This document shows positions 1 through 26,560 of a DNA stretch of 64,000 nt, in pieces. Within the stretch, counting starts at the first letter, position 1. Each line of letters opens with the position of its first letter. The DNA comes from Podospora anserina. Its lineage: Eukaryota. The stretch lies in assembly GCA_017654855.1 (NCBI GenBank), contig CM030337.1, forward strand, positions 248,001-312,000. The letters run 5' to 3'. The translations under genes were made by a program, and so were the position numbers. The notes beneath the pieces are model-generated. The model was not told the DNA's origin and ran no database searches. It was given only the letters and a program-made list of their open reading frames with translations.

Positions 1-2770
1 TTAAATTAGGTTCCGGTATATTAAATACTATACTATATTAAAACCTGTATTGATCTTTATCATAGTATAGGAGTCAAATAATCTATAATAAATAATTCTT
101 TTTCAGAAAAGAGCCGGAGCGCAATGTACAATTAAAATGGTGAAGTAAAACGTAAGTAACAAGGGACTAAATAACTTTCAACGGTAGTATTATAAATCTT
201 TAGCAAAGTTATACCAAAAAAAACTATTTTTATTACATAAAAATTCAACTGATATAATATTGTTTTTATTAAATATCCCAAAAGAATTATACTTCGCTAT
301 AAAACTAAATACTAACGTCTCAAATATTATACTATTTCGAAACCTACATTTATATTTAATACATCGTAGGAAATAAGTTAATTCACGTAGATTAAAAGTT
401 TCGTTACCTTTATGTTCGAAAGGTTAATTAATAATAATTACTAAATGAATCTTTGAAATTAAAATATTTCCTCACGTTTTGCTTTTCACGAAATTTATAT
501 TAAAAGTTTAATATATTTCAGTTTAAAATTAATAAATAAATAAAAAGTAGAGTTTGAAAAGGCTTACAAAGACTTCGAAAGTATCGGAAAATATACAACT
601 ATTGTTATATATATATTAAAGTTTTTAAATCAACGAGTTAATTAAGTTAAATATAGAATTTACGCCTCTACTTAAAATAAAAATAAAAGTATAATACTAA
701 TATAGTACGGGGTTAATAGGAGAAACTTTGATTGATTAATCAATAAGAATAAGTAAATAACCAAAAGAATTTATTATATACATATTTTATAACCCTAGAT
801 CTGTTTACTTTAAGCTTTGTAAAAAAAGTCCCTTATCTTTCAAGACTAACTATATAATCTATATAATTTAGAAATCATATTATCCTAGCTTTTAAAAGGT
901 TAATTATCAATAATTACCGCATAAGTGTCTACAATTAAAATATACTTTAATTTCCTACTTTTAACAAAATTTAAACTGATAGCTTTACAATATTTTAAGT
1001 TTATATTGGTAGGTAAATAGCAAATATAATTTGAAGAGATTTATAAAAACTTTGAACTTATTAACAAGTTTATTACTTTTATCATATAGCCTCAGAATCT
1101 TCATCAATAAAATAAATAATTAGGCGTGGAATTGATATCTCCGATTAAGGTAAAAGGAAAAGATTTAATAGTGACATAGTACAAAGTTAGCGGGAGGAAA
1201 TACAGTTAGTTAATTATTAAAAGTAGTAAAAGTATTTAGCAAAATTATCTTATAAATAAATGTCTTATAACCCCAAACATTTTCACTTTAACCCCTGTAA
1301 AGAAGTCTCCTACCCGTAGAGACTAAGTGTGACGAATCTCTATCCAGGACCTCTGGAAGAGATACTAGTCGAAGGCGCTTCTAGACAATCTAGTTCGGTG
1401 CAGCTAAACAGTGCACGATAATAGCTTGTCTCAATCACAATAGTGTGAACACTAACTAATGTGACTTGTATTGCATACTGCGGAACTATCTGCTACCCAT
1501 CTAGTTCCTCTGAATATATAGACTTGAGGACTATAGACTGTTGACTTACAGACATTCCTCGGTCCTCATCTTATTGGCTTAGCTTGGACCGTGGACCCTG
1601 AGCTCCGCCGTGGTCCCCGTTCTGAATTTCATTAGTCCGTCCTGGCTACTAAACCATGAGCCACGCTCACCTTCCTGGTCTAGTCCTCTTTGGCCCGCCA
1701 GTTCCCACCTTCTATCCAAAACCGCCACACCGAGCTAGCTACGTCTCAACGAGTAAAGATGGTTTGTAATATAGTATAGTATTTAATCTATTAAGGTTTA
1801 ATTTTATAATAAATAGTAAATTCTTTTGATATTTAATAAAAAGTAATGTTATATTAATAGTATGTTTTTTGAATATTAATATCTTTGGTTATTGTTTTGA
1901 TTAGGTTTTTTATATAATGAAAAAATTATTCTTTTCTATAATTCTTTTAGAGGTTAATACTTTTATTATTTAACGTACTTTTTTATTAAATATCATTTAA
2001 GAAATAAATTCAAAAAGAAAAAGTATCGGGGTATAATATCAAAAATAAAAAGAATACTTACTAGTAAACAATAATGTGAATATTAGTAATAAAGTATAAA
2101 TAAACAAAGTTTCATAAATATATGTATATAAAAACCAAAATACTGGGATATAATTATTGAAGGTTAAGTCCCATACCATAAGCCTAAAGGCCCTGTAATA
2201 GTAGAGCACTTTAGTTCTCACGGCGTAGCGGAAACTTGCGACACGGTACCTGTAGCTCATTTTTGAATGTGCGTAGGCTCCAGCGCTTTACAGCGCTGTG
2301 TGACGGAGTAATAATGGGTGAAACTCTGTATTTATAAGGCTAGCCTTTTGTAATACCACGGTAGTTGTCTGTGGTAGGTTTCGCACTCGACTCTACCATA
2401 TACACTCCGGGGGCTTTACAGGGCGTTGCACTCCCCAACACGCAGATGTGTCAAAGTTTGACCTAGAAGTCAAAGATTTGGCTGCGTTTTGCCAAAAACG
2501 GGCTCACGCCCATACAAAACAGGGCAAAATCAGCCACCGGCCTGCCGTAGATGCGGGTAGATGTGGGCCCACAAGGTCATTGTTTCCACAGGGTACTTAT
2601 AGGGCCTTTAGTAGCCTAAATCCAAAGTTTAGGCCATTTTAGGCCACTGTGGCGCCCTATGCAGAGCTTCGAAGTTGACTTCGTACTAAGTGGATCCTCA
2701 GGGGTGCCGGGTTGGTGTGTTGTGACCGTCTTCGCCGTATCCACCGGTTCCTTCAGAACTAAACGCCTTG
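1..2770 (-). other. Unidentified RIP-degenerate sequence with a GC-richer promoter-like 5' end (about 2200-2770)
   Basis: The minus strand shows TATAAATA near 2330 and CAAAA-ATG at 2260, then an ORF that decays into AT-rich sequence. It is interrupted by the solo LTR at 1328. Family not recognised. Confidence 0.35.
1328..1729 (-). mobile_element. Solo LTR (Gypsy family shared with E1-E3)
   Basis: TGTGACG...CCACA ends; R/U5 similar to the other LTRs. Flanks CTAAG/CCGAG fit a 5-bp TSD altered by transitions. Confidence 0.85.
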
Positions 2771-3174
2771 TGTGACGAACCCCTATCCAGAATCTCTGAA
2801 AGGGATACTGGTTGAAGGCACTTCTGAACAATCCTGGTTCGGTACAGCTAAACAGTGTACAACAATGGCTTGTCTCAATCACAATAGCTAAGATACCACG
2901 ATTGTGTATTGTATTGCATACTGCGGAACTGTCTATCTACACCAGCCAGTTCCTCCGTATATATAGACCAGTGGACCGTGGACCGTTGACTTACAGACGG
3001 TCCTCGGTCCACTCCTGATTGGCCGATACTGGACCGTGGACCGTGAGCTTCGCCGCGCTCCCCGGTCTCCATCTTATTGGTCCGTTTGCCCACCTGGACC
3101 GTGAGCCCCGCTCGATCGCGCGGTCCAGTCCTGATTGGTCCCTCGTGGCCCCACTGTCTTCCAGAACCGTGACA
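2771..3174 (-). mobile_element. Solo LTR without TSD
   Basis: TGTGACGAACCCC...CCGTGACA, homologous to the other LTRs. Flanks CCTTG/TAATA do not match. Confidence 0.85.
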
Positions 3175-6100
3175 TAATACCGGGACGTTATAGCGGTAAT
3201 AAAGGAAAGTTTAAATGATTGTTAATTTAACTTGATCTTTATTTTTATTATTATTTAGAAATATTTAATATCGAAGAGTTTAAAGTACTATTTGTGATTA
3301 TTTAATTAGGAAAAAATGTATTTATATAGTTCGAACTTATCATAAATAATTATTACGAGTTCTTAGTTACAAATCCTAAAAAGTTATTACTAGATATTTC
3401 CGGAGTTACGGTAAGTTTAAAATTAAGTTTAGAGAAGGATTTAAAAACTATGATAAAATAAAGTATACGTAGAAGAAATTCGTAGGTTTACGTTAAGTAC
3501 GCTTAGTAGCCGAATACGCGGCTATAATTAAAGTCGACAACTTACGTAACGGAATTAATATTAAAAAGTTAATATACCTTTTTTATGACAGCCTTGAAAA
3601 GAAAAGTAGTGAATAAGTTATATAAATAATTAAAACTTAATATTTTAGATAATTATATCGCTATAGTTATATAAATCGACGATAAATAATTTTAACGTTA
3701 GATAAAAAAGAAAGGTAATGAATAGAATTATTACGGTATAACCGTTTTAACAATAAATGTAAAAGGTAATATCTAAGTATTCATTATTCCGGTATTATTC
3801 GGTAGAACTTATAAAGGTCGATACCATAAAATATTAAAACTATAGAGCCGAAAAGTTCAGGTAAAGATAACTTGAAATATTTTAAATATACTCAAATAAA
3901 ATACTTGAAAAAAGACTATGAAGTCTTTAAGTAATTCAAAGAAAGAAAAGATTACTATAATAACTATACTAAAAAGTATAAGGATTATAAAAATCGTAAT
4001 TATTAATTACGGGGAAAAAAAGTAATAGATTTTGAAAAAAAACGTTTATTAGTCCGTATATAGGAAGAGTAATGGTTTTGGGAACTAAAGGAAGGTTTAA
4101 ACCAGTTTAAGGTGAGACATTAAAAAGTAAATATATAATTCCGGAAATTATAAGAATAATTAGTTTGAACGGTTATACAAATTACAAAATTTATTAATCT
4201 TATACTACACGAAAAACCTATAAAGTCAATTACGTTCAAGGAAAGGTTGTATGAATATAAAAATATATTATTATAGCGGACTTATAAAGTACAGAAGTTT
4301 ATATTTAAAAATCAAAAAGAGTTCTTAAAAAATGCTTGATATAAGACTTATATATAAGCTTAAGTAAATACCTTTATATATGTAGTATATACCTTTCTAA
4401 AAGGATACGGTATAGCTTTGCGTTGAATATCTAAAATATTAAAAGAATTCTTTAGTTTTAATATGTTATATGTAAGTATATAGAGTATTATTACAGTAAA
4501 ACGTTTTATAGTTTTTAACTGGTAAAATACACGGGTAGGAACGGAAACATTAAACCTGTTATTAAAACGATAATTAAATAGTATTGATTATAAGAGGAGT
4601 TTAACGATCATTCCCAATAGAAACTATAGGACCTAATTGAGTTAATGGGTAGTGTTTAGCTATATGAATTATGTTTAAATATATAAACTATATTGAAATA
4701 TCTCAATTATTATTTAAAATGTGTAATATACTAAAAACACGGTGTAATTGAAAAAATTAAATATACCTTAATGTATTATACGAATCTTAACTATTTGTTG
4801 TACTTACGGATAAAGTCATGAAGAATTATAATATATTAATTAAACCGGGGCTAGAATAACAGTTGAGAAGCAAAAATATAATCGGAAAAAAGTTTAATAT
4901 AATATATAAAACGGAAAGTAAAGAAATGTTTAACGGTAATACTTAGTCCAATTTATATTATAAGCTAGTTTAAAGTTTGATAATACTTAAAAAAATAAGT
5001 TACGGTCTTTTAGGGAAAGCGTTAACCTTTGAAATATTATAAATAATACCAAAGTAATAATAGAAAATAATAATTTTATATTGATTAGAAAAGTTGTTAC
5101 TATATAAGGAAAATATAAGAAAGATAAATAGTTTTAAATTATAATCTGCTAAAAAATTTCTTTGGCGATAATATTAGTAAATAATAATATAGAACCACAA
5201 TTAATTTTGCTTTAGTTCGTATATCAAATTAAAATATTATAAAGGAACAAGAAAAATAAGTTACTATAAAGAGAATATTTTTAATGTAAATTTCTTTGAA
5301 AATATTACCCTTGAATATTACGCTCAAAGTGAAAATGATTTTAATTATGTGCTATATCACAAGTTTTGGCTTTTTTTACAAAAAATGTAATTTTAAATCA
5401 TTATAATATAAGAATTATAATTTGGATATTGATTGAAAGGATAGTAATCACTTACGATGAAAAGAACCTTAAAAATATATGATTAATAATGAACGATTAA
5501 ATACATATAAAATAAAGTATAGGATAAATACCCTTTATAATACTACAGTAAAAAGTATAAAAAAAAGAAGAAAGCAGAAGCGGTACTAATAAAATACCGG
5601 AGATACTTAGCCTTTATAATTAAGTATTTAGAGGAACTACTAAAACGAGAATTAGAGAATTATAAAATTAAGTTAAAAGAAGGAATTAGATTATAGTTAT
5701 TTAAAGCTTATTATGTTAACTATAAATACAATGATGCATTACAGAAGTATTTTAGTAAAATGTTTTTTTTAAAAAAATTAAAGAATTTAGAGTACTGATT
5801 AGGTACCCCGTTTTTCCCGCACTGAAAAAAGACAGTAATTTACGATTATATATAAATTACCATTGGTTAAATAACGAAATATTAAATTTTAAATATTTAT
5901 TAGCAATAAGATTTAAATTACGGAGTTAACTAATAAAATTTCAATGGTTTATATCTTTAAATACAGTAGTCGGGTATATCTATATATAGATTAAAGAAAA
6001 AGTAAAGAAAAAATAGTGTTCGTATACTTTATAATTATTTTAAATATTTCGTAATATTATTTATCCTTATTAATATACTCACGAGATTTAAATCTCTTGT

Positions 6101-7146
6101 CAACTATACTATTTGAAAGTATTTCAATAAAATAGTAATATATTATTTCGAAGATGTTTTCATGTACTCATATACTTTAGAAAAGTATAAGCGTTGAGTA
6201 CAAAAAATAGGTGATATATTATATAAGACCGGACTTTTAGTAAGTTAAAAAAAACCAAGTTTTGTATAAAAAATTTATATACATAGCATATTTAATATTA
6301 TTAAGGTTTATATGAAGTTTGAAATGATTACGGTTGTTAAGAACTAATTTATACTGTAGTTATGAATATATATTAGGGAGTTTTTAAAATTTATTAATTT
6401 TCTGTACCGGACATACATACGTACTATATACTTATTTAATTGATTAATCTAAAAAAATATACAGTTCTAGTAGGGGTGAGGAAAAAAATAGGTATTCCAG
6501 GAGCTAAAAATAGCTATTGTAAAAAGACCTAGTATTTATATTATTAAACCCTGATCGACTGTTCAACGTCCAAATAAATATATTAAACTATATAATTAAA
6601 ACATAACTCAGTTAGAAAACAAGGACGTAAAGTTATATCCGGGAATGTCTTCTGCGGATGAAATTTGAGGAGGCTTACTAAATAGGTTATTTACTATTAT
6701 TGAAACGTTCGACTAATACAAGCTATATTTTAATAGTATTCATTATAAAATTTAGGTTTACAATGATTGTAATAATTTTTAATAGGTTATTATTATAAAG
6801 GTTTTTAATCCGCGGTAAAGTAAGCGATTGAAGTTTCTATTAAAATTTAATTTCTAAATTAATTAAAAATATGCATTGGAAAATATCAGGGTAAATATAT
6901 TCAACCGGAGAACCGAATATTATCACGATATACTGAACAATTATTACTATTATTTTGGAAAATAAGGGAGGATACTTTTAAGGTTTTACTTTATTTATAA
7001 ATAAACTATTACGTTATATATTATAAATAAATTACATTCAATCAATATTAAGGGAAGGTTAAAGGCGATATTACCAAATAATATAAATAATAAAAGTTGA
7101 AAGTATAAAATATTTCAAAAGATAGTTAGGGACGATTATAATATAG

Positions 7147-7541
7147 TGTCACGACTTGACACTTAGTAGGGCGCGGGGCGTACCACGGACCAATGACACT
7201 TGGTGGGGCACGGGGTGCACCACGGACCAATCAGACCAGGATCAATGGGATCGAGGATCGATCCAGGAGAGTCAACCCCAAAAGGGACAGTATCGATAGG
7301 ATCGATGGTCGAGTCTATCGATCCAGGAGAGTGCCAGGCTTGGCACTGGGTCTATATATACGGAGGAACTGGCTGGTATAAATACACAGTTCCGCAGTAT
7401 GCAATTACAGCTTGTATTTACGGTATCTTATGTTTATATTGAGACATCTTATTGTGCGCTATTTAGCCGCACCGAACTAATTATCAGAAGTAGCCTTTAA
7501 CCAGTGTCCCTTTTAAAGGTTCTATACAGGGGTTCGTCACA
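7147..7541 (+). repeat. E2 5' LTR
   Basis: TGTCACG...TTCGTCACA; direct repeat of 13545-13939. U3 holds a tandem duplication of about 37 bp and GATC-rich repeats. Confidence 0.95.
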
Positions 7542-10500
7542 CGTTACATACTCACTTTAACTCTATTACGGATAAGTTAAAGGTATTAAATTAACGCTAT
7601 AGCCGGAAACGTTAATACCTAGGCAGGAGCATCCACTTACCTTACTATCGACCAGCTTCTCGCTTAAATTTAAAAGCTTAAGGATAAGTTACGCCTTTCT
7701 TACGATACCCTTACGTAAGAAAACGCTATACTCTACCAGGAGATGAGTACCTTACGTAGGAAAGGAGAGTGTATTAAACTCGAGGTACCCGATCGCTATA
7801 AAAGTATAAAAGGAGAGCTAGGAGGATTCTTAATCCCACTTAAGCTTACTTTCGGTACTACCCTTCTCGTTTCCCGGACGAGGAATCTAAAGTTATATAT
7901 ACTACGTCCAGGCTTAAGGACATAGTACTTATATAGTTCGAACCGATCTTAAGAAATTACTTCGATAAGACGTATAACGAGAGGAAAGTTATTATTAAAA
8001 AGTGCTTTAAGTTATATAAAAGCTTTAAAAAGAAAATTAAAAAGGTATTTAAAGAATATAATAAGGGTAGGCGTACCTAGAAGCGATTAGTTAACTTTAA
8101 ATAGATTTAATTTACTACCGACTATACTATAATATTTAAAACAAATATATTCCGTAATATAATTAACGACGAAGGGTTAATATAGTTATTCTATAACGGG
8201 CTTAAGGAAAAAGTTAAGAACGAACTATATCGAATAAAGCGACCGGAGACTATCGATAAGTATATCGCGATAGCTGTCCGCATTAACGATCGGTAATACT
8301 AGCGCCGTAAGAAACGTAAGGGCACACGCGTATAAGCACCCTATTATCTTAACGATAAAAAGAAGAGACGACCGTACAGGACTTACGTCTCGGGGACCAC
8401 TTACGTAGGGCCTATAAAGATCGATACTATTTAATAATAGAGGCCGTAAAGCCGGAGCTAAAGTAGAGATAACCTTAAGTATTTTAACTATAATAAAGTA
8501 AGATACTTTAAAAAGGATTATAAAGTACCTAAGTAACTCGGATAGAAAAGGAAGATTATAATAATTATTATATTGAAAGGACCGAAAGTTATAGAGGTCG
8601 TAGTTCTCGGATTAATAAAGTAAAGTAGTAAAATAAATAATTAAATAAAAAAATTATTATCGGATATATATATAAGAAAATATTAAGTACGTAAGAGACG
8701 GAAAATAGGAGGAAGTTAAGCGGGTATAGTTAAAAGACTTTATATTATTAGATAACCCGGAGCAAGAGGACGCTTTTAAACGATATAACCGCCTAGGAAA
8801 CGACTCGCGGCTTTTCGCGGAGGCCGGTAATTTTAACGGATTACAAACAGTATTTTCGAAAATATCGGTATAAAGCAAAAGTATAGAATAACGACCCGAT
8901 ACTTATTAATAAAGTTATTACTCTATAGGAAAAAGGTAAGAAAGATAAATACCTTTAGATTATAGTATATTAAAAAAATATTTAAGTAATAATATTAGTA
9001 ATTAAAGGTATAGAAACGAATTTAATTTTATTATAGTTCGTATATTAAACTAAAATACTATAGAAAAAAAAAGGAATAAATCGTTATATAAAGATTATTT
9101 CCGATATAAAAGATTTATACAAAATATTAGCTTAAAATATTATAATCGAAGGAAAAATAACGTTAATTATATTTAATATTATAAATATAAAACTTTTAAA
9201 GGATATAATTTTAAGGTAACTATAGTATAAAGATTATAACCTAAATATTATTTAGAGGGACGGTAATTACTTATAACTAAAAGAATTTTAAAAATATTTA
9301 ATTAACGATAGGAGATTATGTGTATATGTAGAGTAGAGTGTAGGATAAGCACCCTCCACGGTACTACCGTAAGCAACCTAAAAAGTAATAATATACTTTA
9401 TCGATATAAATAGTAAAATCGAAAAAGTAAGGTTAACGACGTTTATAGAAATATCGGAGGTTAATAAATATATTTATTATAATAATATAAAGAAAAGTAA
9501 GAAAAAAATAGTACCGGTAGAATATTAAGGATACCTAACCTTTACGGCTAAGTATTTAGAGGGACTTTTAAAGCGAAGACCGTAGAACTATAAAATTATA
9601 GTTATTTAAGGTTTACTATATTAATAATAAGTAAAGTAAGGAATTACAAAAATACTTAAATAAAAATTTAAAGAGAAGAAATATTAAAGAACTTATATTA
9701 TTAGTAGGATATTCTGTATTTTTCGTACCGAAGAAAAATAATAATTTACGACTATATATAAATTATTATTAATTAAATAATAAAACGGTAAAAAATAATT
9801 ACCTGCTATTATAAATATCTAAGTAAAAAAGTTAATTAATAAAGGTATAATACTTTATATATTTAAATATATTTATCGGGTACGCCTATATATAGATTAA
9901 AGAAAGGGATAAATAAAAAATAATATTTCGTATACTTTATAGTTATTTTGAGTATTTCGTAATATTATTTAGGCTAACTAATACGCCCGTAACGTTCTAA
10001 TCTCTTCTTAACTATATAATCCGGAAGTACCTCGATAAAATAATAATATACTATCCTAACGATATTCTTATTTACTTATATACTTTAAAGAAGTATAAGC
10101 GATACGTATAAAAGATACTCGACGCGCTATACGGAGCCGGACTCTTAATAAATACAGAAAAGAGCAAGTTTTATATATAAAAGATAATATATTTAAAATA
10201 TTTAATATCGTTAAGTAAAGTTTATATAGAATTTAAAAAGATACGGTAATTAAAGACTAACCTATACCGTAATTATAAATATATATTAGAAAATTCTTAA
10301 GGTTTATAAATTTATATTAAATATTTAATTATAAATACGTAAGAATCGCGTAACTATTTAATTACTTAATTAAAAAAAACGTAAAATTCCGGTAGGAGTA
10401 AGAAGAAAAGTAAGCTTTTTAAAAATTAAAAAAGATTATTTTAAGGGACCCGGTACTTACCTTACTAAACCCTAGTCGATTATTTAAGGTCGAGGTAAAT

Positions 10501-12447
10501 ATATTAAACTATTAATCGATAAATAATTAAGATAGCGAAACGACGACGGAAAACTATATTTAATAACTTTCTTTTTAAAGAAGCTAAAAAGGGGTACGTT
10601 AAAACTACTTAATCTACGATAAAAAGCTATTTGTTATTATTGAAGCGTTCGAGGAGTAAAGGCTAGACTTTAATAGTATTAATTATAGATATAGGTCTAT
10701 ACGGATTATAAAAACTTACGATACTTTACTATTACGAAGGTCCTTAATATATAATAAATATAATAATAAAAAGAAATTTCGAAATTTAATATTTAAATTA
10801 ATTATAAAAAATGTTCGGAAAACGCTAGGGCAAACGTATTTAGCCGGCGAGCCGATTACTATATAAATATACCTAGGGAGTTATTATTATTACTTAAGGA
10901 GACGCTAGAAAATACTTTTAAGTATTTATTTTAACCGTAAATAAAATATTATATAGTATATCGTAAGTAAATTATTTTTAGTAAATATTAAGGAAAGTTA
11001 AGTAACGATATTACGGAATAATATTAATAAGAAGAATTAAAGTTCTAAAGTATTTTAAAAAAAATTAAGGAAGATTATAATTTAAAAATCGAGCGTACGT
11101 AAAGCTAAGTAATAGGACGTCACTAATAATAGAAATTTATAGGTTAAAGCTTGGAGGATATAGAGGTATTATAATAACTATAGAAAGAATTAAGTAATAC
11201 CTTAACTAGCCGAGGATTAAGGATAACGTTAAAGAAGCTATTTAATTATATTATATATACGAGAAGACGAAGGTTACGAAGTATAAACTTTATGGATTTT
11301 TAGAGTTTTTACTAATAGTAAAACGATTATAAAGTTTAATTATAATAAACTTTATTACTAAGTTATTAAAATTAAAAAATATAATAACCGGTATTAAATA
11401 TAATAATATATTAACGGTAGTCGATAGGCTTACTAAATAAGTATACTTTTTACTTTATAAAGAAATCTAATCGGTAAAGTAATTAGCGAATATAATACTA
11501 TAGTATATTATAATAATATATATATAATTGAAAAAAATTATTATAAACCGCGATACTAAATTGGTATCGAAGTTTTAAAGAACGTTAATAACGAAATTCG
11601 GGGTAATAAATAAAACGTTATTAACCTACTATCCTTAAATAAATAGTTAAACAGAACGGCTTAGTTAAATTATAAAATAATACTTACGGAATTATATTAA
11701 TTTCGAATAAAACGATTAGGTTAAACTATTATTTATAATATAATTAGTATATAATAAATTATTAATAGAAACGATTAGAGTTACGCCGTTTTTTATAAAT
11801 TTTAAATATAAAGTAGACCTACGGTAGGGATTTAACGTTAAGGTACCTAGGGCTGGGTTAAAATAAATAAACTATATATATTTTATAGTAAGCTTAAGTA
11901 AATACTAAAGTTTATAAGGGAAAGAATATAGAAATACTATAATACTAAAAGGCTCGAGGAACCTTACTTTAAAGCGGTAAATATAATATTCTTTTCTATA
12001 TATAATTTACATACTAAAAAACTTAGTAAAAAACTAAACTATAGGAAAGTAGGCCTATTTAAGGTTAAAAGAAAGATCTTAGAAACTGTATTCGAATTAG
12101 AGCTACTTAGTACGATACGTCTACGGTTATATATATTTTTACATCTCACTTTTAAAACCCATACTCCCGGTAAATAAAGTTAATATATAAATAGCGGCGG
12201 AGCACGAAAAAAAAATATAATATAGAAAAAATATTAAATTTACGGTTTAATAAAAATTAATTAAAGTATTTAGTTAGTTAGTTAGGATATCCGGCTATAG
12301 ATAATTCGTAGGAACTAAAAATAAATTTTAATTACCCGGATAAGTAAAAAGTATTTTACCGGTAATACTTAAACCGATTAAAGCCTAAATAAATAAAAGA
12401 TTAGTACCTAGGTTTACGGGTAGTACCTATAAATTTAAATACCTAAG

Positions 12448-12517
12448 AACCTTAGTAAGAATCGAACCTACGCCTTCGACGTAGTAGTCGACGTGCCACG
12501 CACTATACTACGAGGTT
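12448..12517 (-). ncRNA. tRNA-like cloverleaf, copy 1 (inside E2)
   Basis: Minus strand reads AACCTCG TA GTAT AGTGCGTG GCAC G TCGAC TACTAC GTCGA AGGC GTAGG TTCGATT CTTAC TAAGGTT. It has acceptor, D, anticodon and T arms and a B-box. Confidence 0.7.
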
Positions 12518-12657
12518 AGTAAATACAAGGGAATCTAGGCCCAACTAATACCATACGCCTCTACTATCGTAAAAAGAAGTCGAAAATATATTACCGGCGG
12601 GGTAATTAAAAAGATAGTATCTAAGTTCACACACTATATTTATAAACTTAGATATAG

Positions 12658-12727
12658 AACCTCGACGGGAATCGAACCTATGCCTCCGATATAGTAACCA
12701 ACGTACTATATACTACACTACGAGGTT
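12658..12727 (-). ncRNA. tRNA-like cloverleaf, copy 2 (inside E2)
   Basis: Minus strand reads AACCTCG TA GTGT AGTATATA GTAC G TTGGT TACTAT ATCGG AGGC ATAGG TTCGATT CCCGT CGAGGTT. Perfect 7-bp acceptor stem and GGTTCGATTCC B-box. Confidence 0.72.
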
Positions 12728-12778
12728 GGAAGGTGTGAAGGGACCTAAATATAGGTAATGCTACGTGTTTTAATTACC

Positions 12779-13438
12779 TTAGGAAATAAAAGGCGCGCTA
12801 TCGACGGTACCCTAGGAAATCAGAAAGGAAGGACCGGCCGTACTAAAGTCTAAAGGAAGGTCGGAAGGCTAATCGAAGCTTAAGGAAAGATCTAAGGAAA
12901 AAAAGTCGGAAGGAATAATAGCGAAAGACTCCGCCGCGGGATAGTTTTAAGGATCTAAAGAAGTAGGAGCGTCGCTAAATAACAAAGTAACCTATGCGGT
13001 TAGCGTAGCTTCTTTTTATTTAATACGCTCTAACTCTTTAATACTATCGAGGCCGCGAAAGACGGCCGTAGCTATTCGTTTAAACTATATTTATTTTTAT
13101 AAACGTAAGTGGTTAATTTTTTAATTTAGGGCCGCGCGCTAGGACTTAACCTTTACTATCTCTATCTCTAACTAGTCGTATTAGGAAATAACTTTGCGGA
13201 GTTGTTAGACGGATAACCTACGAGCGTCGTAAAGAGATTAGTTATACTGTATATAGGAAGCGTAACGTTTAAAAATGGAAGGAGAAATCTTAGGAAAAAC
13301 TACGTTTCTTATAAAAGGAATAAGTATGCTTTATAATAAAAGTAAACCGTAAAATAGAATAAGTAACTCGTTACGATCCCCTATTTTCGAATGTAAAGGT
13401 TTAATACCGGGTCGCGCCTTACTTACGCGGTTAAATAT
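12779..13438 (-). pseudogene. RIP-disrupted antisense accessory ORF of E2 (about 219 codons; Cys motif plus coiled coil)
   Basis: One frame of 660 nt whose stops are TAA/TAG, as RIP would produce. Reverting RIP gives roughly ...KRCASC..C...CD...RLRLQKQMWFERMA.AV.RGLDSVEELERVE.EE. Confidence 0.6.
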
Positions 13439-13544
13439 AATAAAGTATAAGGAATAGGGGAAAAAGGAAAGAACTTATAATTATTAATAGACGCAGGAAA
13501 GTAAGTTAGGCCCACGGGACTTCGGCCTAAAGAGGAGAGCGTCG

Positions 13545-13939
13545 TGTTACGACTTAATATTTAGTGGGGCGCGGGGCGTACTACGGACCAATGACACTTA
13601 GTAGGGCACGGGGTACACCACGGACTAATCAGAACAGGATTAATAGGATCGAGGATCGATCCAGAAGAGTCAACCCCAAAAGGGATAGTATCGATAGGAT
13701 CGATGGTCGAGTCTATCGATCCAGGAAAGTGCTAGGCTTAGCACTAGGTTTATATATACGGAGGAACTGGCTAGTATAGATAAACAGTTCCGCAGTATGC
13801 AATTACAGCTTATATTTACGGTATCTTGTGTTTATATTAAGATATTTTATTATGTGCTGTTTAGCCGCACCGAACTAATTGTCAGAAGTAGCCTTTAACT
13901 AATATCCCTTTCAGAGGTTCTGTATAGGGGTTCGTTATA
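13545..13939 (+). repeat. E2 3' LTR
   Basis: Direct repeat of 7147-7541, more heavily RIP-mutated. Confidence 0.95.
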
Positions 13940-14104
13940 TATAAGAACCGGGCTTACGTAAAGCTAGGTCCTAAAATAATATTAACGAAGGAAATTTAGG
14001 AATTAAAGTTCCAAGGGTATAAAAATATTATAAAAATAATAAAAAAAATTAAATAATATTTGAATTAGCTAAAAATTAAGGAAAATATTATAGAAGATAT
14101 TTAA

Positions 14105-14285
14105 TGATACGATACCGACGGCATGGATAAGAGAGATACTGAACGGTGTGTCCGAACTGATTGATTGATTTGAGATGCCGGAGTAAAACTACCTAACGAG
14201 AACGGGGTATTAATGAAGCTATGCAGTGTGCCCGACCAAGATTCCAGACAGTTTGTCTAGATTTCCTGTCTTTAATTATATAGTA
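14105..14285 (-). mobile_element. About 180-bp insert, probable LTR fragment of a different family
   Basis: GC-richer, TpG-retaining island inside the E1 integrase. The minus strand has a TATA-like start, AATCAATCAATC, and ends GTATCGTATCA. Boundaries are uncertain. Confidence 0.4.
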
Positions 14286-14287
14286 TA

Positions 14288-16148
14288 ACGTATATTATAA
14301 GCGAGTCGTATATAGAAGCGAGTCGTACAGTCTCCACCACCTTACAATAACTATCTTTAATTGCAACATAACAATACTAAAAACCAATTATAATTACATT
14401 AGAAATAGCGGAATTAGACGATTCTATAGCCTCCTGGCAAGTACGTGCATTATGGCCAGGCTTGCCGCATACACTGCAGTACCGAACCTTCGTACGACCC
14501 CCCCCTACACTACTACTATCTGGCTATACTTCTTCTGTTACCTCCCCACCCACGGCCTTCTAGTCCAGTAAATCATTAGCATTTTATATAGCAAGTGATC
14601 TTCCGAGCTATACGCGTATTCTTTTCGCTCTCCGGCGCTTACTTAGTACTTCGTTCGCTTTACGCAACGAAGATACCTTTAACTAAAGGAGAGCTACTTA
14701 ATATATTATAGCCATTATACTTTTAGTAAGCTAGTTTACTGTAGTTAATATTAAAGTCGGGGAGCTATTTTAATAGTTAGTAATGCGAGTCTTAATAAGC
14801 GTTAATTATAAGTTAGCTTCTCGGGAGTTTTATAGTATTTAAAATACCTAAAGTTATAAAATGCCGGGCCGTAAGGTCGGGGGTATTAACGTACGAAGCT
14901 TTATATTTAGCTTAGAAAACACTCTTTTTAGATCGTACGGCGTAAGGCTAGTACCTATAAAGCCACCCCGTATATTCTTCTCTATTATAGAAGCAAAAAA
15001 AGCTTCCCGGAAGGCACAAAGGAACTCGACCTTACTTACGTAATTAATATATACGTATATTAAGTCCTCGATCTAGCGACTGTACGCTTATCTTAGCGGC
15101 CCAAAGCAGCTAATATCGAGTGGTTGGAGGAAGTAAAAGGAATATAGAGATATATAGAGCGTAATAATATTATTTTACTAATAGTAACGCTCGAATCTGG
15201 TCGAGTAATAGCTTTCGTAGCCGTCGAGGATTAATAACCGGTATTTACCTTTTATACGGGACGTTATATAATAATTAAAGTACTTAATTTAACTTAGGCT
15301 TACCGCATTAGTAGTTTAGTTATTATCGGTAATTATAATACGCTAGTCGGCCGGGAGGTTACACTCGGTATATTAGTTAGCGAGGTAGTACTGCGCGGCT
15401 AAAATAATAAAAGAAAAGATAGCCTAGCTAAAAGTATTAACTTCCTAAATTATAATTATTTATTTACGGTTACTAAACTAAATTAGTTTTACTTTTTTAA
15501 GGCCGTCCGAGGTCGTAACTACCATACCCGCGAAAATAATACCTATTATAAACCTAGTCTCGTCGAAATTATAAATACCGTTATTTATAATACCGTACTT
15601 AGCCTTAATATTCCGTATAAGCGTAAACTATTTAGCTATAACTTTTAGATCCTCGCATTTGGCCCTCTAATAATTATATTTACGCGTAAAATACGTATAG
15701 AGCTGTAGCTAGCGTTTAACGAAGTTATATGCCTAGAGCTTACTAATAGGGGGTACGTCGCGTACGCGTAATAGTTAGTTAGCTATATCTTCTATACTAC
15801 GTAATCTTAGTAGAAAAGCTCGCGTATATAGCTTAATAATATATCGGAAATAGCTTCCTTTTCCGATTGAGTCAGCTTTTTCGAATTGGGTGTTATATCG
15901 CGTCGTGCAGGCCGGCCGGCACGTCGGTTTGAGAGAGTCATAGCTGGTACGTTGTAGAGCTTAGCTGCAGCTCGGAGGCTTAATTTTTCATTAATTCGAA
16001 GAGCCTCAAGGGCTAAGAGTATCCTGGCTTCCTTTGAAGTAGGAAGCATATTGGGTTGTGGAAAAAATTAATGTTAGGTGTAAGGAGGACGCGTCGTGGT
16101 GGAGACTGTACGACTCGCTTATATATACGACTCGCTTATAATATACGT
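14288..16148 (-). mobile_element. Fot1/Pot2-like pogo (Tc1-mariner superfamily) DNA transposon, 1861 bp
   Basis: TIRs of about 53 bp (ACGTATATTATAAGCGAGTCG...CTCCACCAC) at 14288-14340 and 16096-16148 with an internal AAGCGAGTCGTA repeat. TA TSD on both sides. Confidence 0.93.
14380..16049 (-). pseudogene. pogo transposase pseudogene (HTH_psq, CENP-B-type HTH, DDE)
   Basis: N-terminus MLPTSKEARILLALEALR...SLRAAAKLYNVP..TL is typical of fungal Fot1-type transposases. The interior is riddled with RIP stops; the 3' end is approximate. Confidence 0.85.
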
Positions 16149-17761
16149 TATATAAAAGAATCAAAGTTATAAAGTATAAGTTTTATAGATTTTTAAAGTT
16201 ATTATTAGAAGCCAAATAGTTATGCAATCTAACTATAGTGCACTTTATTATTAAATTATTAAAGTAAAGATAAAGTAACTAGTAATAATAATATTAATAA
16301 TATATTAAAAGCAATTATTTAACTTATTAAACAAGTATATTTTTATTTTATAAACAAACCTAAACGATAAAACAATTAGCAAATATAGTATTATAGTATA
16401 TTACGTTTATATATATATAGTCGGTTTATTTTAAACCGTACTATTGGATTTATATATAAGTTTTAAAAAGCGCTAATAAAAAAATTAGGGATAAAAGGTA
16501 AAACATTATTAGCTTACTACCTTTCAATAGACGGGCAATAGAACTATTTAATTAGACTATAAAATAGTATTTACGGAACTACATTAATTTCCAATAAATT
16601 AATTAACTGAAATAATCACCTATAATATAATTAACATATAATATATTATTAATGTAAATGATAAAAGTTATACCTTTCTTTGTAAACCATAAATATAACG
16701 TAAATCTACGTTAAGGACACAATATAAAGGTACGTAAGGCTGCAGTTAACGTAAATATGTAATATATACATTACGATAAAAAAAAATTTAAGCTTATATA
16801 AGAAAAAATATTTAAATATTATAATTTTAAAAAGCTTGAAGGACCTCGCTTTAAAAAAGGAGAGACAGTATTACTTTCTATAGGTAATTTATAAATTGAG
16901 AGCTCTAATAAAAGGCTAGACTATGGGAGAATAGAATTATTTAAGGTTAAAAAGAAAATATCGGAAATAATATACGAGCTAAAACTATTGAATATATAAT
17001 ATATTTACGGTTATATACCTTTTGGATTTTACTTTTAGAACCCGTACTATTAACGAGTAAAGCTAATACTAAAAAGTAGCGGAAGGCGAAGAAGAAAAAT
17101 ACCATATAGAAAATGCATTAAATTCACGGATCAACGAGAGTTAATTAAAATAGTAAGTTAATTAATGAGGCTATCCAGCTACGGATAACTTATAGAAACC
17201 TACTATATATTTCAACTACTTTAAAAAGTTAAAAAGGTTTTACCGGCGGTACTTTAATCGGCTAGAAAAAAACTACTAGTTACGCTAGAACCTAAAAAAA
17301 GTTAAAAGGCTAGTCGAAGCCTAGGGTAGGGTCAGAAAAGGAGAAGTCGGAAAGAGCCATACCGGAGGATTTCGCTAGGAGAGGGGCTTACAGGGGCGTT
17401 AGCCGAGCAGTAAACACTCGCTCCATTTCTTTAAGAAGCTAACGTTAATATACAGTAAGTAGTGGTTATATCGAGAAAAAGCGATATACGGAACGTAACC
17501 TTTTTTATAATAAGTATATTAAAGTATTATAAAACTATACTTTTCGAAAAAAAGTTTTAATCGCAGCGGCGTTCGACGCTTATATAAATATGTTTTTAGA
17601 TAAAGTTAAGTATCATAGCGCAAATTAAAAAAAGAAGTGATAGTAGAATATTAATTAGAAGAAGGTACGTTAGTTATTTCTGGGATTTAATTGGCGAGGC
17701 GTTAACCTAGGGAAGCGGTATTATATTATACTTAAACTAACGGGTAGGTTAATTAGTATAG

Positions 17762-18191: not shown

Positions 18192-21100
18192 TATAAGCGG
18201 CGCTGGGCATACTTAGTTAATCGTTAAGTTAAATTAAAAATAATTAATTAGAAAGTAATTAAAGTTATTATAATATAAATAGAATTGTTATAATTACGGG
18301 CAGAATTAATTAGGGTATAATTAGAGTAATTAGGGCATAATTATAATAATTACTAGTAAGGTTAGTTGAAACGTAATTGTCACAGTTAAGCCAACAGGTA
18401 AGTTGAACGAATGCGGGGCATGGGAGGTGGCGGTCAATCGCTACGGGAACCAATAGGAAGTGGAGCGCCGGGGAGCGCCAGGAGCGCGGTGATCTAAGTG
18501 ATCTTAAGGTAACAGGAGTGATCCAGGATCACTCTTAGTATCGTGATCCACGGTAATCTACTAGTCTGTATATACGGAGGAACTGGCTAGTATAGATAAA
18601 TAGTTCCGTAGTATACAATTTAAGTCACAATCGTTGGTATCTAAACTATTATAGTTTAAATAAGCCATTTATTGTATACTATTTAAATATTCCGACTTAA
18701 GATTATTTAAAAGTACCTTTAACCAGTATCCCTTTAAAAATTCTGAATAGAGGTTCGTTATACGTTATATACTTACTTTAACTCTATTATAAATAAGTTG
18801 AAGGCGTCATTTTATTACTATAGCTGGACCTAAAAGCGTTTAAATAAAAGGTATCTCGCTTACCTTATGTAACGGAGGACTTTTTACTATAATTACTAAA
18901 TTTAATACTATAATTATAAAATAATTTATTAAACGCATTTAAGAGTTCGAGCACGAAGTTTACAGACTCGGCATTAAATTATTATTATAATGATTATACT
19001 TAAATCGATATTTAGGTTCTTAGTATCGGAGTACTGTAGAGGAGGAAGGTAAAGTTTAAAGAGTTTTTAATTTAATATAAAATCTATTTTCGTTACTATT
19101 GAAATTAATTTATGAACGAAACGCCAAAGGGAATTTTCGCGGTTATTCAGTTTAAAGATAGGGCTCCTATATCATTTAAACCTATCTTTAACGTTACCAT
19201 AAAGAGAAAAAGGAAAATAAGGAGAAAATTACGGCCTAATATTTTAAAAGCTATTATGTTTTCGAAACTAAATTTTTAAAAGAATTTAGGAAGTATAATA
19301 AAGCAAAGTACGTATAAAAGAGGCTTATCAATTTACGTTAAACGTATTTAATAACGGATTACGCGGTTCCATTTAAAATCAATAGCCTATATAATATTAC
19401 TAACGATAAGGAGTTAATATAGTTTTTATATAGCGGCTTTAAAAAAAAGTAAAAGACAAGTTATATAAGGAATTAAAGTTTAATACTATTAATAAGTATA
19501 CCGCTATAGTTATACAGATCGATAATCGGTAATTTCAATACTATATAAAGAAAAATATAATAGGGGTTATTATAGTAATAACCGTTCTAATAATATATAT
19601 AAACGGTAATATTTTAATATTAATTACTCCGGTACTATATACGTAAAACCGATAAAAGTCAATGTTATATAGTAACAGAGGCCGTAAAGCCGGGGCTAAA
19701 GTAAAGGTAACCTTAAGTATTTTAATTATAGTAAGGTAAGATACTTTAAAAAATATTATAAAATATTTAAACGATTTAATTAAAAGAAGGAGATTATAGT
19801 CATTATTATATCGAAGGGACCGAGGGTTACAGAGGTCGTAATTATTAAGTTTTAGGAAGGCGAAGTTTTAAGCTTTAAAGAAAACTTTGATTAATATACC
19901 GAATAAAAAACTGCAAAGATGTAAAAACTACAGAAAATAATAAAAAAGTTAAAAGTAAAATATAGAGAAAAATATGTTTAAATATAGAAACTATAAAATT
20001 AATTAATATCAATTACTATAAAAATTATTGTAGAGATTATTAAATATAATAACCTTATATAGTAAAAAAGACCTGACTAAGAAATAATATTCAAGAAAAT
20101 AATATTCAAAAAATAATACAGATAATATAAAATAATCTACGTATAATAAATATTAAAGATTTAAAAGTTAGATATAAAACCTAAAAAGAACATGAAGAAA
20201 ACAAGAAAGTCGTTGGTTTAGGATCGCGAAGTAATTAAAATGAACATTTTTATTTATATAATGTACAATTTATAAAGCAAATATAATATAATTTTATTTT
20301 AAATGACCGCAATATTAAAAAGTACTTTAGTTTAAATATATTATATATAAATGTACAATATATTATTAAAGTGAATTATTATATAGTTCTTAGCGTATAC
20401 GTAAAGTAAAGTAAGTAAGTAAGTTATAATTATGAAGACAATAATAATTAATTAAAAAAAAATTTAGAAAAATATAAACCATTATTTCCGGTGAAGAATT
20501 TAGGACCTATTTAAATTAAAAGATAGCTTTTAAATAATATAATTTACCTAAATAAATGAAGTATTACTTGAACTAAATAAAGGGAAGAGGTAATCAAGAT
20601 AGTATAATTCTATGGATAAAAGTAATACTTGCGTAATATTTTAGCCCAGACTACCTACTATATTTATAAAAGAAAGTTAAACCATATCATTAAATAAAGA
20701 GGTTAGGGAAACGATTAAGTAGCGGAAACACTATTAGATATAGGTATAATAGAATATCAGGAAAGTCAGAGACGGGAAGTACAAAGAAGTTAAACGGAAG
20801 TAATGAAAAAAAAAATTATATTATTAAGTAACCCGGAATAAAAGGATACTTTTAAATGATATAACCGCTAAAAAAATATTTTATGGCCCTTCGTGGAGGC
20901 CGGTAACCTCTAACGGATTACAAAAAGTATCGTTTAAAGTATCGGCGTAAGGCACAGGTATAAAATAATAACCCGATACTCGTTAGCGAGGTTACTATTA
21001 TATAAAGAGAAAGTAAAAAAATAAACGCTTTTAAATTATTATATATTAAAAGGATATTTAAATAGTAATATTAATAAATAAGAGTTATGGAAATAAACTT

Positions 21101-23598
21101 AATTTCGTTATAATTTACATATGAAGTTAGGATATTATAAAAGAAAAAAAAGAATACATTATGATATAAAGACTATTTCCGACGTAAAAGGTCTATAAAA
21201 ATATCACTTTCAAATATTATACTTAAAGGGAAAATAATTTTAAGTATATTTAATATCATAGATATAGAAGCTTGAAAATATAATTTTAAAGTAACTGTAG
21301 TATAGAGATTTTAATTTAAATATTGATTGGAAAGATAGTAATTACCTACGATTAAGGAAACCTTGAAAGTATTTAATTAACGATAGGAGATTAGAAATAC
21401 GTATAATGTAAAGTGTAGAATAAGTACCCTCTACGATATTACCGTAAAAGGCCTAAGAAGTAATAGTATACTTTATTAATATAGGCGGTAAATTTAAAGA
21501 AGTAAGGTTAACGACGTTGGTAAAAATCTCAGAGATTAATAAGTATACCTATTATAATGATATCAAAAAAGGCGAGAGAAAAGCGGTACCGGTAGAATAT
21601 TAAACATATTTAACATTTACGGCTATTTATTTTGAGGGACTTTTGAAGCAGGGACTATAGGACTAGGAGTTTAAGTTAAAAGAAAGAGCTAACTTACGGT
21701 TATTTAAAGTTTATTATACTAACGATAACCAAAGTAAGGATTTACGGAAGTATTTAAACGAGAGTCTTGAAAAAATTATATTAGCGAGTTTATATCGCTA
21801 ATAAATGCCCTGTTTTTTATACCGACAAAGAATAGTAATTTACAACTATATATAAATTACCGTCAGTTAAATAATGAAACGATAAAAATTAATTACCCAT
21901 TATAATTAATGTTTAAATTATAAAGTTAATTCATTAAGGCCTAATACTTTATATATGTAAATATACCTATTAAGTACGCTTATATAGATTAAAAAAAGAG
22001 ATAAATAGAAAATAGTATTTCGTAATACTGTTCGGGTTGATTAATGTACCCGCGACGTTTTAATATCTCGTTAATTCTACGATCCCGAAATATCTTAATA
22101 AAATAGTAATATATTATTTTAATACCGGTTTTATTTATTTCTATATTCCAGCAAAATCTAGCGATATATATAAAAAAGGATATAGGTAAGATATTTAATA
22201 TTATTAAGTAAGGTTCGGATAGAATTTAAGAAAATTACGCTAATTCGAAACTAATCTATACCGTAATTATAAAAATATATTAAGGAATTTTTAAGGTTCA
22301 TAAATTTTTATCGGATGTGTATTCGGGGGTATATAGGAATTACATAGTTATTTAACTATTTAATTAAAAAGAATATAGAGTTCCAGTGGGAGTAGGAAAA
22401 AAGTAAGCCTTTTAGGTGTTAAAGGAAACTATTTTGAAGGACTCGCTATTTAAATTATTAAACGTTAATTAACCGTTCGAAGTCGAAGCTAATATATTAG
22501 ATCATACGATCGGTAAATAGTGATATTAACGAAACAACGATAGAAAGCTATATCCGGTAACTTTCCTTTCGAAAAAATTAAAGAAAGTACGTTTTAATTA
22601 CTTAATTTACGATAAAAAACTATTTATTATTATTACAATATTTAAGAAATAAAAAGTATACTTTAATAATATTAATTATAAAATATAAGTCTATATAAAT
22701 TATAAAAATTTACGATACCCTACTACCATAAAGATCCTTACCGTACGATAAATACCATCCTTAATTGTTTTTTCGGAGTTTATTTTTAGATTAACTTTGG
22801 AAAAGATTCGGAAAACGTGAAGGTAAATATCTTTAACCGGCGAACCGATTATTATAAAAATATATTTAAGGAATTACTATTATTATTAAAAGAAACGCTA
22901 AAAGTATTTTTAATTATTTATTTTAACCGTTAATAGAATATTATATGGTATATTATGAGTAAGTTACTTTTAGTCAGTTTTTAAAGAAGTTAAATAATAA
23001 TATCATAAAGTAATATTAATAAAAGTAATTAGAACTGTAAGGTATTTAAAAGAATAGTTAGAGAAGACAATAGTGTAAAAGTCGAATATATATAAAGTTA
23101 GTTAATAAAATAATATTGATAATAGACATTTATACGTTAAAATTCGGAGGATACATAAGTATTATAAAAACTATAGAAAAGATTAAGTAGTACCTAATTA
23201 GTTAAAGATTAAAGATAACGTTAGGAAAATTATTTAGTTATACTATACGTACGAAAAAATAAAGGTTATACGGTATAAGCCTTATAGATTTTTAAAGTTA
23301 TTATTAATTTTAGAACGATTATAAAGTTTAATTACGATACACTTTATTTCAAAATATAAAAGTTAAAAAATATAATAGCCGGCGTTAAGTATATTAATAT
23401 ATTAACGGTAATCGATAAGTTTATTAAATCTAGTTTTTACCCTATAAAGGAACTTAGTCGGTAAAGTAATTAGCGGATATAGTACTGGAGTATATTATAG
23501 TAATATATACATAGTTAAAGGAGTTTATTACGGACCGTAATATTAAATTTATATTAAAGTTTTCAAAAGCGTTAATAATAAGGTTAAAGGTAATAAGT

Positions 23599-24230
23599 TG
23601 TTAGCTGGTAAGCCCTGATAGGCCTATAATATAGAACCTATACAGGGTTGCTGTAAAATACAGCAGTGCGCAAGCGGAAGCGGGAGGATACGACGGCAGT
23701 GCCGAAGGAAGGTAAAGCACTGTAATACAGTGAGGTATAAAGAATAAGAATTGCCTTTATTACCTTTGGCCTTGGCCTTTGGCCTTAGCCTTAAGCTTTT
23801 GCCCTTAAGGAAAGAAAGAGAACTATTCTACAGGAGAGAGGAGAGGTCTATATATAGGCCTTCGTAGGCCTACTGTGGGTCCTGTAGGCCCTGGAAGCCC
23901 CTATACCACTTTGGGGTATTTGGTGGGCTTAGGTGGGTCTAGTGTAGACTCACGGAAATCCATAGAACCTTCGGCAGCAGAGGTGCCCTGTAAATCACAC
24001 TATTGTGGCAACTTACTACGTAAGCCTGTAGCCACTTTGGAAGGTTCTAGTATTCATTGACTAAGCCTCAGGCCACAGTAGCCCTGTAAGCCTTCAAGGG
24101 TCCCTTGTAAAGAATATTCTAAAGGGATCCAAGCCGGGAAGTTCAATTACTGCTTATAGCAGTACTGCCCACTGTAATATCAATCTGTAGGGCAGTAAGT
24201 AGGGCACTTAGTAGTACCCACACATTAACA
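23599..24230 (-). mobile_element. 632-bp solo LTR of an unrelated family within the E3 integrase
   Basis: TGTTAG...TTAACA ends; minus-strand TATATA and AATAAA; short TTGGCC-like repeats. No TSD (TAAGT/GACAT). Confidence 0.8.
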
Positions 24231-24868
24231 GACATAAAGTAGACCTACGGCAAGGACTTAATATAGAGGTATTTAGGGCTAGAATTAAAGTATATAAATT
24301 ACATATACCTTATGATAAGTTTAAAAACAATTAAAGTTTATAAAGAAAAGGTTATGGAAATAACATAATGTTAAAAAGCTCGAAGGACCTCGCTTTAAAG
24401 GGAGGGATATGATATTTTCTTATAATATAATTTACGTATTAAGAACTTTAGTAAGAAACTAGGCTATAAAAGAGTGGGCATATTCAAAGTTAAAAGGAAA
24501 ATATTAAGGATAGCATTCGAATTAAAACTACTTAATATAATATATTTACGGTTATATACCTTTTATATTTTTATTTTAAAACCCGTATTATTAATAAATA
24601 AAGTTAATATATAAGAAGTAGCGAAGGATAAGGAAAGGGAGTACGATATAGAAAAAATTAGATTCACGGTTTAATAAAGATAAAATAAAATATTTAATTA
24701 GTTAATTAAAATACTTAGTTAATGATAATTTATTGAAATTAATGGTAAACCTTAATTACTTAAATAAATTAAAAGAATTTTACTAGTAATATTTAAACCA
24801 GCTAAGGTTAATATAAGTAAAAAACATACGTTAGGATTCTTAAAAAGTTAAAAATCCTAACGTATCAA

Positions 24869-24938
24869 TGTTTTAACGGAAATCAAACGCGTGTCTTTGA
24901 TATAGTAGCCGGTATAGTATATACTATATAATAAGGTT
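24869..24938 (-). ncRNA. Degenerate tRNA-like cloverleaf (inside E3)
   Basis: Aligns without gaps to the E2 copies (plus strand ACGGAAATCAAAC...GATATAGTAGCCGG...TATATACTA...AGGTT). Same position after the chromodomain. Confidence 0.55.
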
Positions 24939-26479: not shown

Positions 26480-26560
26480 TTTAGTTTTCCGTTTGGTTTT
26501 TTGGGGTCTTTTTTTTGGTCTTTTTAGTTTTTTTTGGGGTTTTTTTTGGGGTTGGGGAGT
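26480..26560. repeat. Low-complexity T/G tracts at the AT/GC boundary
   Basis: Runs such as TTTTTTGGGG and TTTTTTTTGG. Confidence 0.8.

Follow-up and report, generated by a model that had tools for sequence, protein, structure and literature searches.

Two tRNA-like sequences, arranged in tandem and antisense near the 3' end of a retrotransposon of Podospora anserina, raise the question of whether the element has kept them for some function or has simply carried them along. The initial annotation of this window (the whole stretch of 64,000 nt analysed here, from contig CM030337.1) had suggested a maintained module, which implies a functional part of a once active element that was later destroyed by RIP at this locus. 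As an antisense Pol III unit of tRNA origin, or as a TFIIIC site, such a module would mark a chromatin boundary, supply antisense small RNA or provide an RNase P/Z processing signal. The question was approached by considering the fold of the tRNA-like copies, the element that contains them, the repeats around them, their paralogues elsewhere in the genome and the mutations that they have accumulated. Coordinates of all features are collected in Table 1.

Both sequences (copies A and B) are recognised as tRNA-like on the minus strand, with a start-to-start spacing of 210 from copy B to copy A, as originally reported. The Rfam model RF00005, whose gathering score is 29, matched both at or above that score (30.2 bits for copy B and 29.0 bits for copy A), with E-values of 0.028 (copy B) and 0.059 (copy A) in a search of the whole window and of 2.6e-4 and 5.6e-4, respectively, in a search of 601 nt. 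ARAGORN reported copy A only and placed its anticodon at an implausible position with an implausible isotype. The acceptor, D, anticodon and T arms that had been described are formed by standard or G-U pairs at 20 of 21 positions in copy A and at 19 of 21 in copy B, and the 6-nt anticodon loop is seen in both. Self-comparison of the window revealed a third copy (copy C; blastn, 12665-12727 against 24876-24938) that aligns column by column with A and B and has the same 6-nt loop; RF00005 gives no match to it even at E-values up to 10 in a search of 251 nt. The 27-kb AT-rich block was then scanned with a RIP-corrected consensus of the three copies as query, RIP-type transitions being scored leniently and shuffled windows serving as the null. 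Only the A/B pair (scores of 130/127) and copy C (99) exceeded the null maximum of 39 obtained from 1344 shuffled windows, and because just these three sites in the block beat the shuffled null, a chance origin of the folds is excluded.

The consensus also provides information on the ancestor of these copies. Since it keeps 20 of the 21 cloverleaf pairs and a 5-bp T stem made of G and C only, the ancestor was a good cloverleaf, and it displays a canonical T arm, an A-box-like D arm and both A-box-like and B-box motifs. Together with the RF00005 scores, this bears out the tRNA ancestry that had been put forward. Correction for RIP restores a near-perfect cloverleaf, yet the anticodon loop stays at 6 nt, and ARAGORN assigns no isotype to the consensus, so that the tRNA-Gly(GCC) ancestry suggested in the initial annotation is putative. 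Because the loop has 6 nt in all three copies, we agree with the previous view that none of them represents a decoding tRNA.

The identity of the host element is supported by several features. Copy 1 of the family, in which A and B reside, is delimited by two LTRs, and its flanks TATAG and TATAA represent a 5-bp target duplication. The order of RT, RNase H and integrase in pol, in combination with the similarity of the pol C-terminus (12192-12380) to the HP1 chromodomain 1kna_A (E 3.5e-4, with seven more HP1/CBX chains below 0.01), supports its designation as a chromovirus; the chromodomain match in copy 0, an older copy of the same family, is weaker (E 0.33). Pfam matches fall below the curated cut-offs, as expected for an element mutated by RIP. 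Copy 1 is nested inside copy 0. Reference bases 11080-11084 of the alignment find a match both before and after its insertion, as would be expected of a target duplication. The tRNA-like units lie 818 nt upstream of the 3' LTR and are opposite in orientation to pol and the LTRs; the LTRs themselves gave no RF00005 match at E-values up to 10. Thus, the two enclosing LTRs, the target duplication and the chromodomain confirm that the pair is carried inside a chromovirus. Two further observations concern the surrounding repeats: a 37-bp tandem repeat in two copies occupies the U3 part of the LTR (7157-7231), and a second insertion (14115-16137), possibly a DNA transposon or else some other repeat that has been rearranged, splits copy 0 and has inverted repeats near its ends (14270-14340/16096-16166, 91.5%).

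Table 1. Features of the chromovirus family and its tRNA-like units in the window
Feature	Position	Strand	Evidence and remarks
Copy 0, older copy of the same family, with copy 1 nested inside	5051-7146, 13940-14114, 16138-17414
Copy 1, host element, 6793 bp	7147-13939	+	Ty3/gypsy chromovirus
5' LTR of copy 1, 395 bp, TG...CA, TATAG before	7147-7541	+	90% identical to 13544-13935
pol remnants of copy 1, with RIP stops	9725-12380	+	Pfam with stops as X; HP1 chromodomain match
RT	9725-10183	+	Pfam RVT_1, E 4.5e-6
RNase H	10402-10662	+	Pfam RT_RNaseH_2, E 2.1e-4
Integrase SH3 (Tf2-type)	12007-12120	+	Pfam SH3_Tf2-1, E 4.3e-4 to 8e-3
Chromodomain	about 12204-12350	+	Pfam Chromo, E 0.084
Repeat X1, pol end (C-terminal chromodomain half, stop) and about 70 nt	12296-12446	+	z 11.1 against copy 0 (17164-17313)
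tRNA-like copy B, 71 nt, 6-nt anticodon loop, T loop GGTTCGATTC	12447-12517	-	RF00005 30.2 bits, model 1-71; 19/21 cloverleaf pairs
Repeat X2, between the tRNA-likes	12518-12656	+	12524-12655 against X1, z 5.0
tRNA-like copy A, 71 nt, 6-nt anticodon loop	12657-12727	-	RF00005 29.0 bits, model 1-71; ARAGORN; 20/21 pairs
Repeat X3, then Z	12728-12986	+	12750-12986 against copy 0 (17191-17414), z 18.6
Purine tract of copy 1, ahead of the 3' LTR	13529-13539
3' LTR of copy 1, 395 bp, TATAA after	13545-13939	+	terminal CA mutated to TA
3' part of copy 0	16138-17414	+	single X, no tRNA-like; 11245-12376 against 16138-17260
Copy 2, third copy of the family	about 18400-26110
Repeat X in copy 2, immediately preceding tRNA-like C	24690-24854	+	z 12.0 against copy 0 (17150-17308)
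tRNA-like copy C, heavily RIP-mutated	24868-24938	-	second element copy, same junction with X; 12/21 pairs

These results bear directly on another reading, namely that the folds are host tRNA genes, or a chance tRNA-like fold, beside transposon debris. Bit scores that barely reach the gathering threshold would fit such a reading. However, the units are enclosed by the LTR pair of a single element with its target duplication, and the same junction with element sequence appears again in another copy of the element as well as in contigs from paralogues. Moreover, the copies are homologous, the consensus cloverleaf (20 of 21 pairs) equalling that of A (20) and surpassing those of B (19) and C (12), and shuffled controls never came near the observed scores. 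We therefore regard this reading as refuted, with a negligible probability left to it.

The arrangement of the units within the element is informative with respect to their origin. The first tRNA-like begins about 70 nt 3' of the pol stop, within the 3' untranslated part, and the units alternate with a repeat of about 140 bp (X) that comprises the last 25 or so pol codons and about 70 nt beyond them. In copy 1 the order is X1, anti-tRNA B, X2, anti-tRNA A and X3, followed by the ordinary 3' UTR (Z), with a period of 210 bp; X1 adjoins the 3' end of tRNA-like B. In addition to the comparisons in Table 1, X2 resembles X3 (12521-12646, z 6.5) and copy 0 (z 3.7), and X1 resembles X3 (z 3.5). Because no more than 0-6 nt separate the starts and ends of the X copies from those of the tRNA-likes, the insert is a bare tRNA-sized piece, with neither gene flanks nor a SINE body or tail. 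Copy 0 is collinear both with X1 and with X3 plus Z, and no tRNA match was detected in it at E-values up to 10. A perfect 13-nt inverted repeat (24826-24838/24853-24865) adjoins tRNA-like C and explains why copy 2 has additional bases between its X and C. Another X repeat after tRNA-like C was not significant (z -0.1 to 0.4), and no further decayed units above the null were found downstream in copies 0 and 1. The number of units in the three family copies of the window is accordingly 0 (copy 0), 1 (copy 2) and 2 (copy 1). A purine run is located 21-33 nt downstream of the insert site (17334-17346 in copy 0 and about 12895-12906 in copy 1); as a speculation, plus-strand synthesis could be primed internally at this run, which might then have a bearing on the origin of the insert.

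Variation in unit number extends beyond the window. Runs of 7 studies under a single organism label contain the stretch, and contigs of two DNA runs from the same organism were aligned to the window at 80% likeness. Contigs 80-84% alike bridge X1, tRNA-like B and X2 (12229-12584, 12245-12662 and 12270-12572), and one in the same range bridges B, X2, A and X3 (12503-12838); at this level of likeness they are therefore paralogues. One contig joint leads from 12498 to 12717 and skips one period (one unit fewer), and another leads from 12676 back to 12502, by about one period (one unit more). In the DNA run labelled X1 (a run, as distinct from the repeat of that name), summed contig depth, which is no measure of copy number, is 494-915 over the module against 1655-12650 over 11000-12390; the same sum, read with the same restriction, reaches about 26000-28500 in the LTR bins at 13675-13995.

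Such data help to evaluate whether the units go back to an independent SINE of tRNA origin, or to a tRNA that a LINE had retro-copied, which was inserted antisense in a master chromovirus and then duplicated by unequal recombination. SINE heads often have an aberrant anticodon loop, and, like SINE2 elements, the units combine a tRNA-derived head, A/B-box-like motifs and a non-decoding anticodon region. Insertion of a SINE has also been proposed as the origin of the Helenus, Ajax and Cassandra elements, in the sections of PMC10886601 that deal with them. Unlike SINE2, however, the units here possess no tRNA-unrelated body, tail or target duplication of their own, X abutting them at both ends within 0-6 nt. 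Furthermore, genome contigs over the tRNA-likes continue into X on both sides, and the 27-kb repeat block has no extra copies outside the chromovirus context. Rather than exceeding that of their flanks, the depth over the tRNA-likes falls below it, which argues against a high-copy independent SINE at 80% likeness. Overall, a SINE or LINE-made origin appears quite improbable.

Contigs of other kinds touch on expression and on derivatives of the family. None of the runs recorded as containing the stretch is an RNA run. In two RNA-type runs, no contig covers 12070-13032, a result that speaks neither for nor against expression; small RNAs are not visible in contigs. RNA-type runs X21 and X22 contain contigs that resemble the 3' half of the LTR (13735-13935), have G/C where the window has A/T, and run on into unrelated sequence; less RIP-mutated relatives of the LTR seem to be transcribed somewhere in the organism. 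In the DNA runs X1 and X20 as well as in the RNA-type run X22, there are contigs in which an LTR end (13933) is connected, through 17-21 other letters, to sequence resembling the integrase C-terminus (11855/11915); they look like a member of the family that has lost internal sequence.

We then considered whether the units bear any mark of selection, which is what a maintained module would lead one to expect. The AT-rich block (1-26500) has a G+C content of 21-44% and the adjoining gene block one of 45-58%, with a sharp boundary at 26000-27000. TpA/ApT is 1.5 in the element versus 0.67 in the gene block, and (CpA+TpG)/(ApC+GpT) is 0.24 versus 1.3. Transitions make up 19 of 19 differences between copies A and B, 22 of 26 between A and C, and 29 of 33 between B and C. 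This pattern is like that of RIP in filamentous ascomycetes: differences between A and B are exclusively C-to-T or G-to-A, TpA is in excess, CpA and TpG are depleted, and an AT-rich block lies beside a gene block with 50-55% G+C. Two arguments for maintenance had been advanced in the initial annotation, that the units are better conserved than their flanks and that their stems show paired changes. As to the former, A and B are identical at 52 of 71 positions and X1 and X2 at 85 of 126 (Fisher p = 0.42), so the units do not stand out. As to the latter, we introduced the observed number of random C-to-T/G-to-A changes into the RIP-corrected consensus (20000 trials per copy), and simulated pairing reached the observed level in 5.5% (A), 23% (B) and 89% (C) of trials, three copies giving this comparison low power. 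Kept pairing is indeed expected, because a C-to-T change in a G-C pair yields G-U and a double change yields A-U, and RIP thus accounts for the paired changes without selection. Because neither pairing nor conservation is better than RIP and the flanks give, both arguments fall; there is no sign of selection on the structure or sequence of the tRNA-likes, three copies making these weak tests.

Other aspects of the maintained-module reading deserve consideration. In its favour are the near-perfect cloverleaf of the RIP-corrected ancestor with its canonical T arm and A-box-like D arm, the T runs that follow on the minus strand (downstream of copy C, T5 runs lie 14 and 24 nt away), and the fact that retrotransposition has carried the units into several genomic copies. 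A precedent is offered by Helenus LTR elements, which appear to rely on tRNA-derived Pol III promoters, as far as the relevant sections of PMC10886601 describe them. However, minus-strand T runs are expected anyway, because the sense strand is A-rich. In addition, one of the three family copies in the window has no unit, unit number is unstable, copy C no longer matches RF00005 at E-values up to 10, and the depth over the module (494-915) is below that over the neighbouring pol end (1655-12650), depth again being no copy number. Pairing and conservation show no excess. The cloverleaf is also wrongly oriented for RNase P/Z-type 3' processing of the sense transcript. Processing signals of the mascRNA type, in which a tRNA-like cloverleaf likewise forms part of a longer transcription unit, have the same orientation as their host transcript, whereas the cloverleaf here is on the strand opposite to the transcript of the element. 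Consequently, we consider a maintained functional module unlikely.

The explanation that we favour, and which is probably correct, is that the tRNA-likes go back to a single tRNA-derived sequence that became part of the 3' UTR of a chromovirus subfamily and was copied along at retrotransposition, as a captured passenger. In its favour are the recurrence of the junction between X and tRNA-like in a second element copy and the RIP mutation of all copies together with the rest of the element; as the sequence after C is not significantly like X (z -0.1 to 0.4), the first insertion may or may not have brought an X duplication with it. The observation behind the initial annotation is partly confirmed and its interpretation partly supported. 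Judging from the geometry alone, the reverse transcriptase could have copied a tRNA or tRNA-like RNA in the virus-like particle after a template switch. Copying may have taken place during plus-strand synthesis, which fits because the complement of the tRNA 3' end directly follows X on the sense strand. Plus-strand synthesis is the step that normally copies the 3' end of the primer. A switch onto a tRNA during minus-strand synthesis would yield a sense insert, and we rejected it on that reasoning. Later template switching between X repeats on co-packaged RNAs would have raised or lowered the number of units, the module being a neutral or nearly neutral passenger. At present it would be silent, mutated DNA in the AT-rich RIP block of this genome, doing nothing. 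Survival of the module through several rounds of retrotransposition despite flanking direct repeats that favour loss could hint at some benefit, and the A-box-like and B-box motifs and following T runs suggest that the ancestor may once have been transcribed by Pol III.

Published cases lend plausibility to both steps of captured-passenger formation. For Tnt1, the pertinent text of PMC2923131 describes template switching that alters repeat number, including repeat gain, and cites deletions in Ty1. In the Ty3/gypsy element cqgypsy_1 of Culex quinquefasciatus (Osvaldo lineage), two tRNA-sized copies, which are whole tRNA copies, are flanked on each side by directly duplicated element sequence, namely a 26-nt duplication of its LTR, according to the part of PMC3286476 on this element. 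In both that element and the one studied here, the flanked tRNA copies point to reverse-transcription errors involving tRNA. The two cases differ in many details: as that part of the paper presents them, the copies of cqgypsy_1 lie at the border of the 5' LTR and PBS, head to head, represent two different tRNAs with CCA and are perfectly folded, whereas those in the chromovirus lie in the 3' UTR, head to tail, represent one tRNA type with a defective anticodon loop, are separated by repeats of about 140 bp, have no demonstrable CCA and are RIP-mutated.

Attempts to trace the parent tRNA and a possible role in priming gave the following results. At the junctions between tRNA-like and X, no CCA remnant was demonstrable. 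A metagenome scan with a 31-letter degenerate motif for the tRNA 3' half retrieved 0 stretches, and one with a 22-letter motif for the T arm and acceptor retrieved at least 118. Among the matches listed, ARAGORN found no tRNA in 42 of 115 candidate windows and assigned 25 to Leu(taa), 26 to Glu, 12 to Arg and a few to others; no parent tRNA was present among these listed matches, the best 5'-half match scoring 37 of a possible 92. The leader that follows the 5' LTR (7542-7568 in copy 1 and 18763-18790 in copy 2) is conserved between copies 1 and 2, and its first letters are not TGG. Aligned with the tRNA-likes, it gave nothing better than gapped, RIP-tolerant local alignments of 16 nt (scored without a shuffle control), in keeping with the statement of the annotation that it is not complementary to their 3' ends, and the idea of a self-encoded primer was rejected. 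Self-priming of the Tf1 type was rejected as well, the match between leader and LTR being as weak (score 17).

The closest analogues described are Helenus, Cassandra and Ajax (TRIMp3), small LTR elements whose LTRs harbour tRNA- or 5S-derived sequences (PMC10886601, sections on these families). As characterised there, they share with the present module a small-RNA-derived sequence with box A/B-like motifs that an LTR retrotransposon has made its own and passes on as it spreads, usually not as a functional tRNA, and fungal examples exist. Differences are substantial: in those elements, again following these sections, the sequence resides in the LTR of non-autonomous elements of 311-1263 bp and is presumably the promoter of the element, whereas here it is internal to the 3' UTR, antisense and tandem with element sequence, the element measuring 6.8 kb and having pol, and some copies of the family lack it. 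A more specific version of the maintained-module reading is that a subfamily of an autonomous fungal chromovirus gained, in the 3' UTR, an antisense tRNA-derived Pol III unit (a TFIIIC/Pol III site) with a T-run terminator close by, and that this unit was kept over repeated rounds of retrotransposition because it benefits the element, possibly as a chromatin boundary, by antisense small RNA that tunes expression, or by marking copies as landing sites; we give this version little credence. Regarding novelty, the annotation had treated the arrangement as not known to be described for fungal chromoviruses. In CC-licensed PMC papers and bioRxiv, no account was found of a fungal chromovirus whose 3' UTR contains a tRNA-like module; paper supplements and Repbase may contain comparable cases. 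The statement calls for some qualification, as the LTR-borne sequences of Helenus and the tRNA copies of a mosquito Ty3/gypsy element are published.

These findings have several implications for fungal retrotransposons. The 3' UTR of an autonomous LTR retrotransposon can acquire a complete sequence of tRNA size, which the element then spreads; this would be a further way for tRNA-like pseudogenes to become numerous in fungal genomes, where they mislead the prediction of tRNA genes. The series of 0, 1 and 2 units between element repeats would represent a readable footprint of template switching in reverse transcription. For genomes affected by RIP in general, caution is advisable, as stems can acquire paired G:C to A:T changes in the absence of selection, and such changes are not to be taken as covariation. 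In the improbable event that the module is functional after all, Pol III elements would be linked to chromovirus biology, and if the antisense Pol III unit reading were true, the module would be the first known case of an internal and antisense equivalent to the tRNA promoters that Helenus carries in its LTRs.
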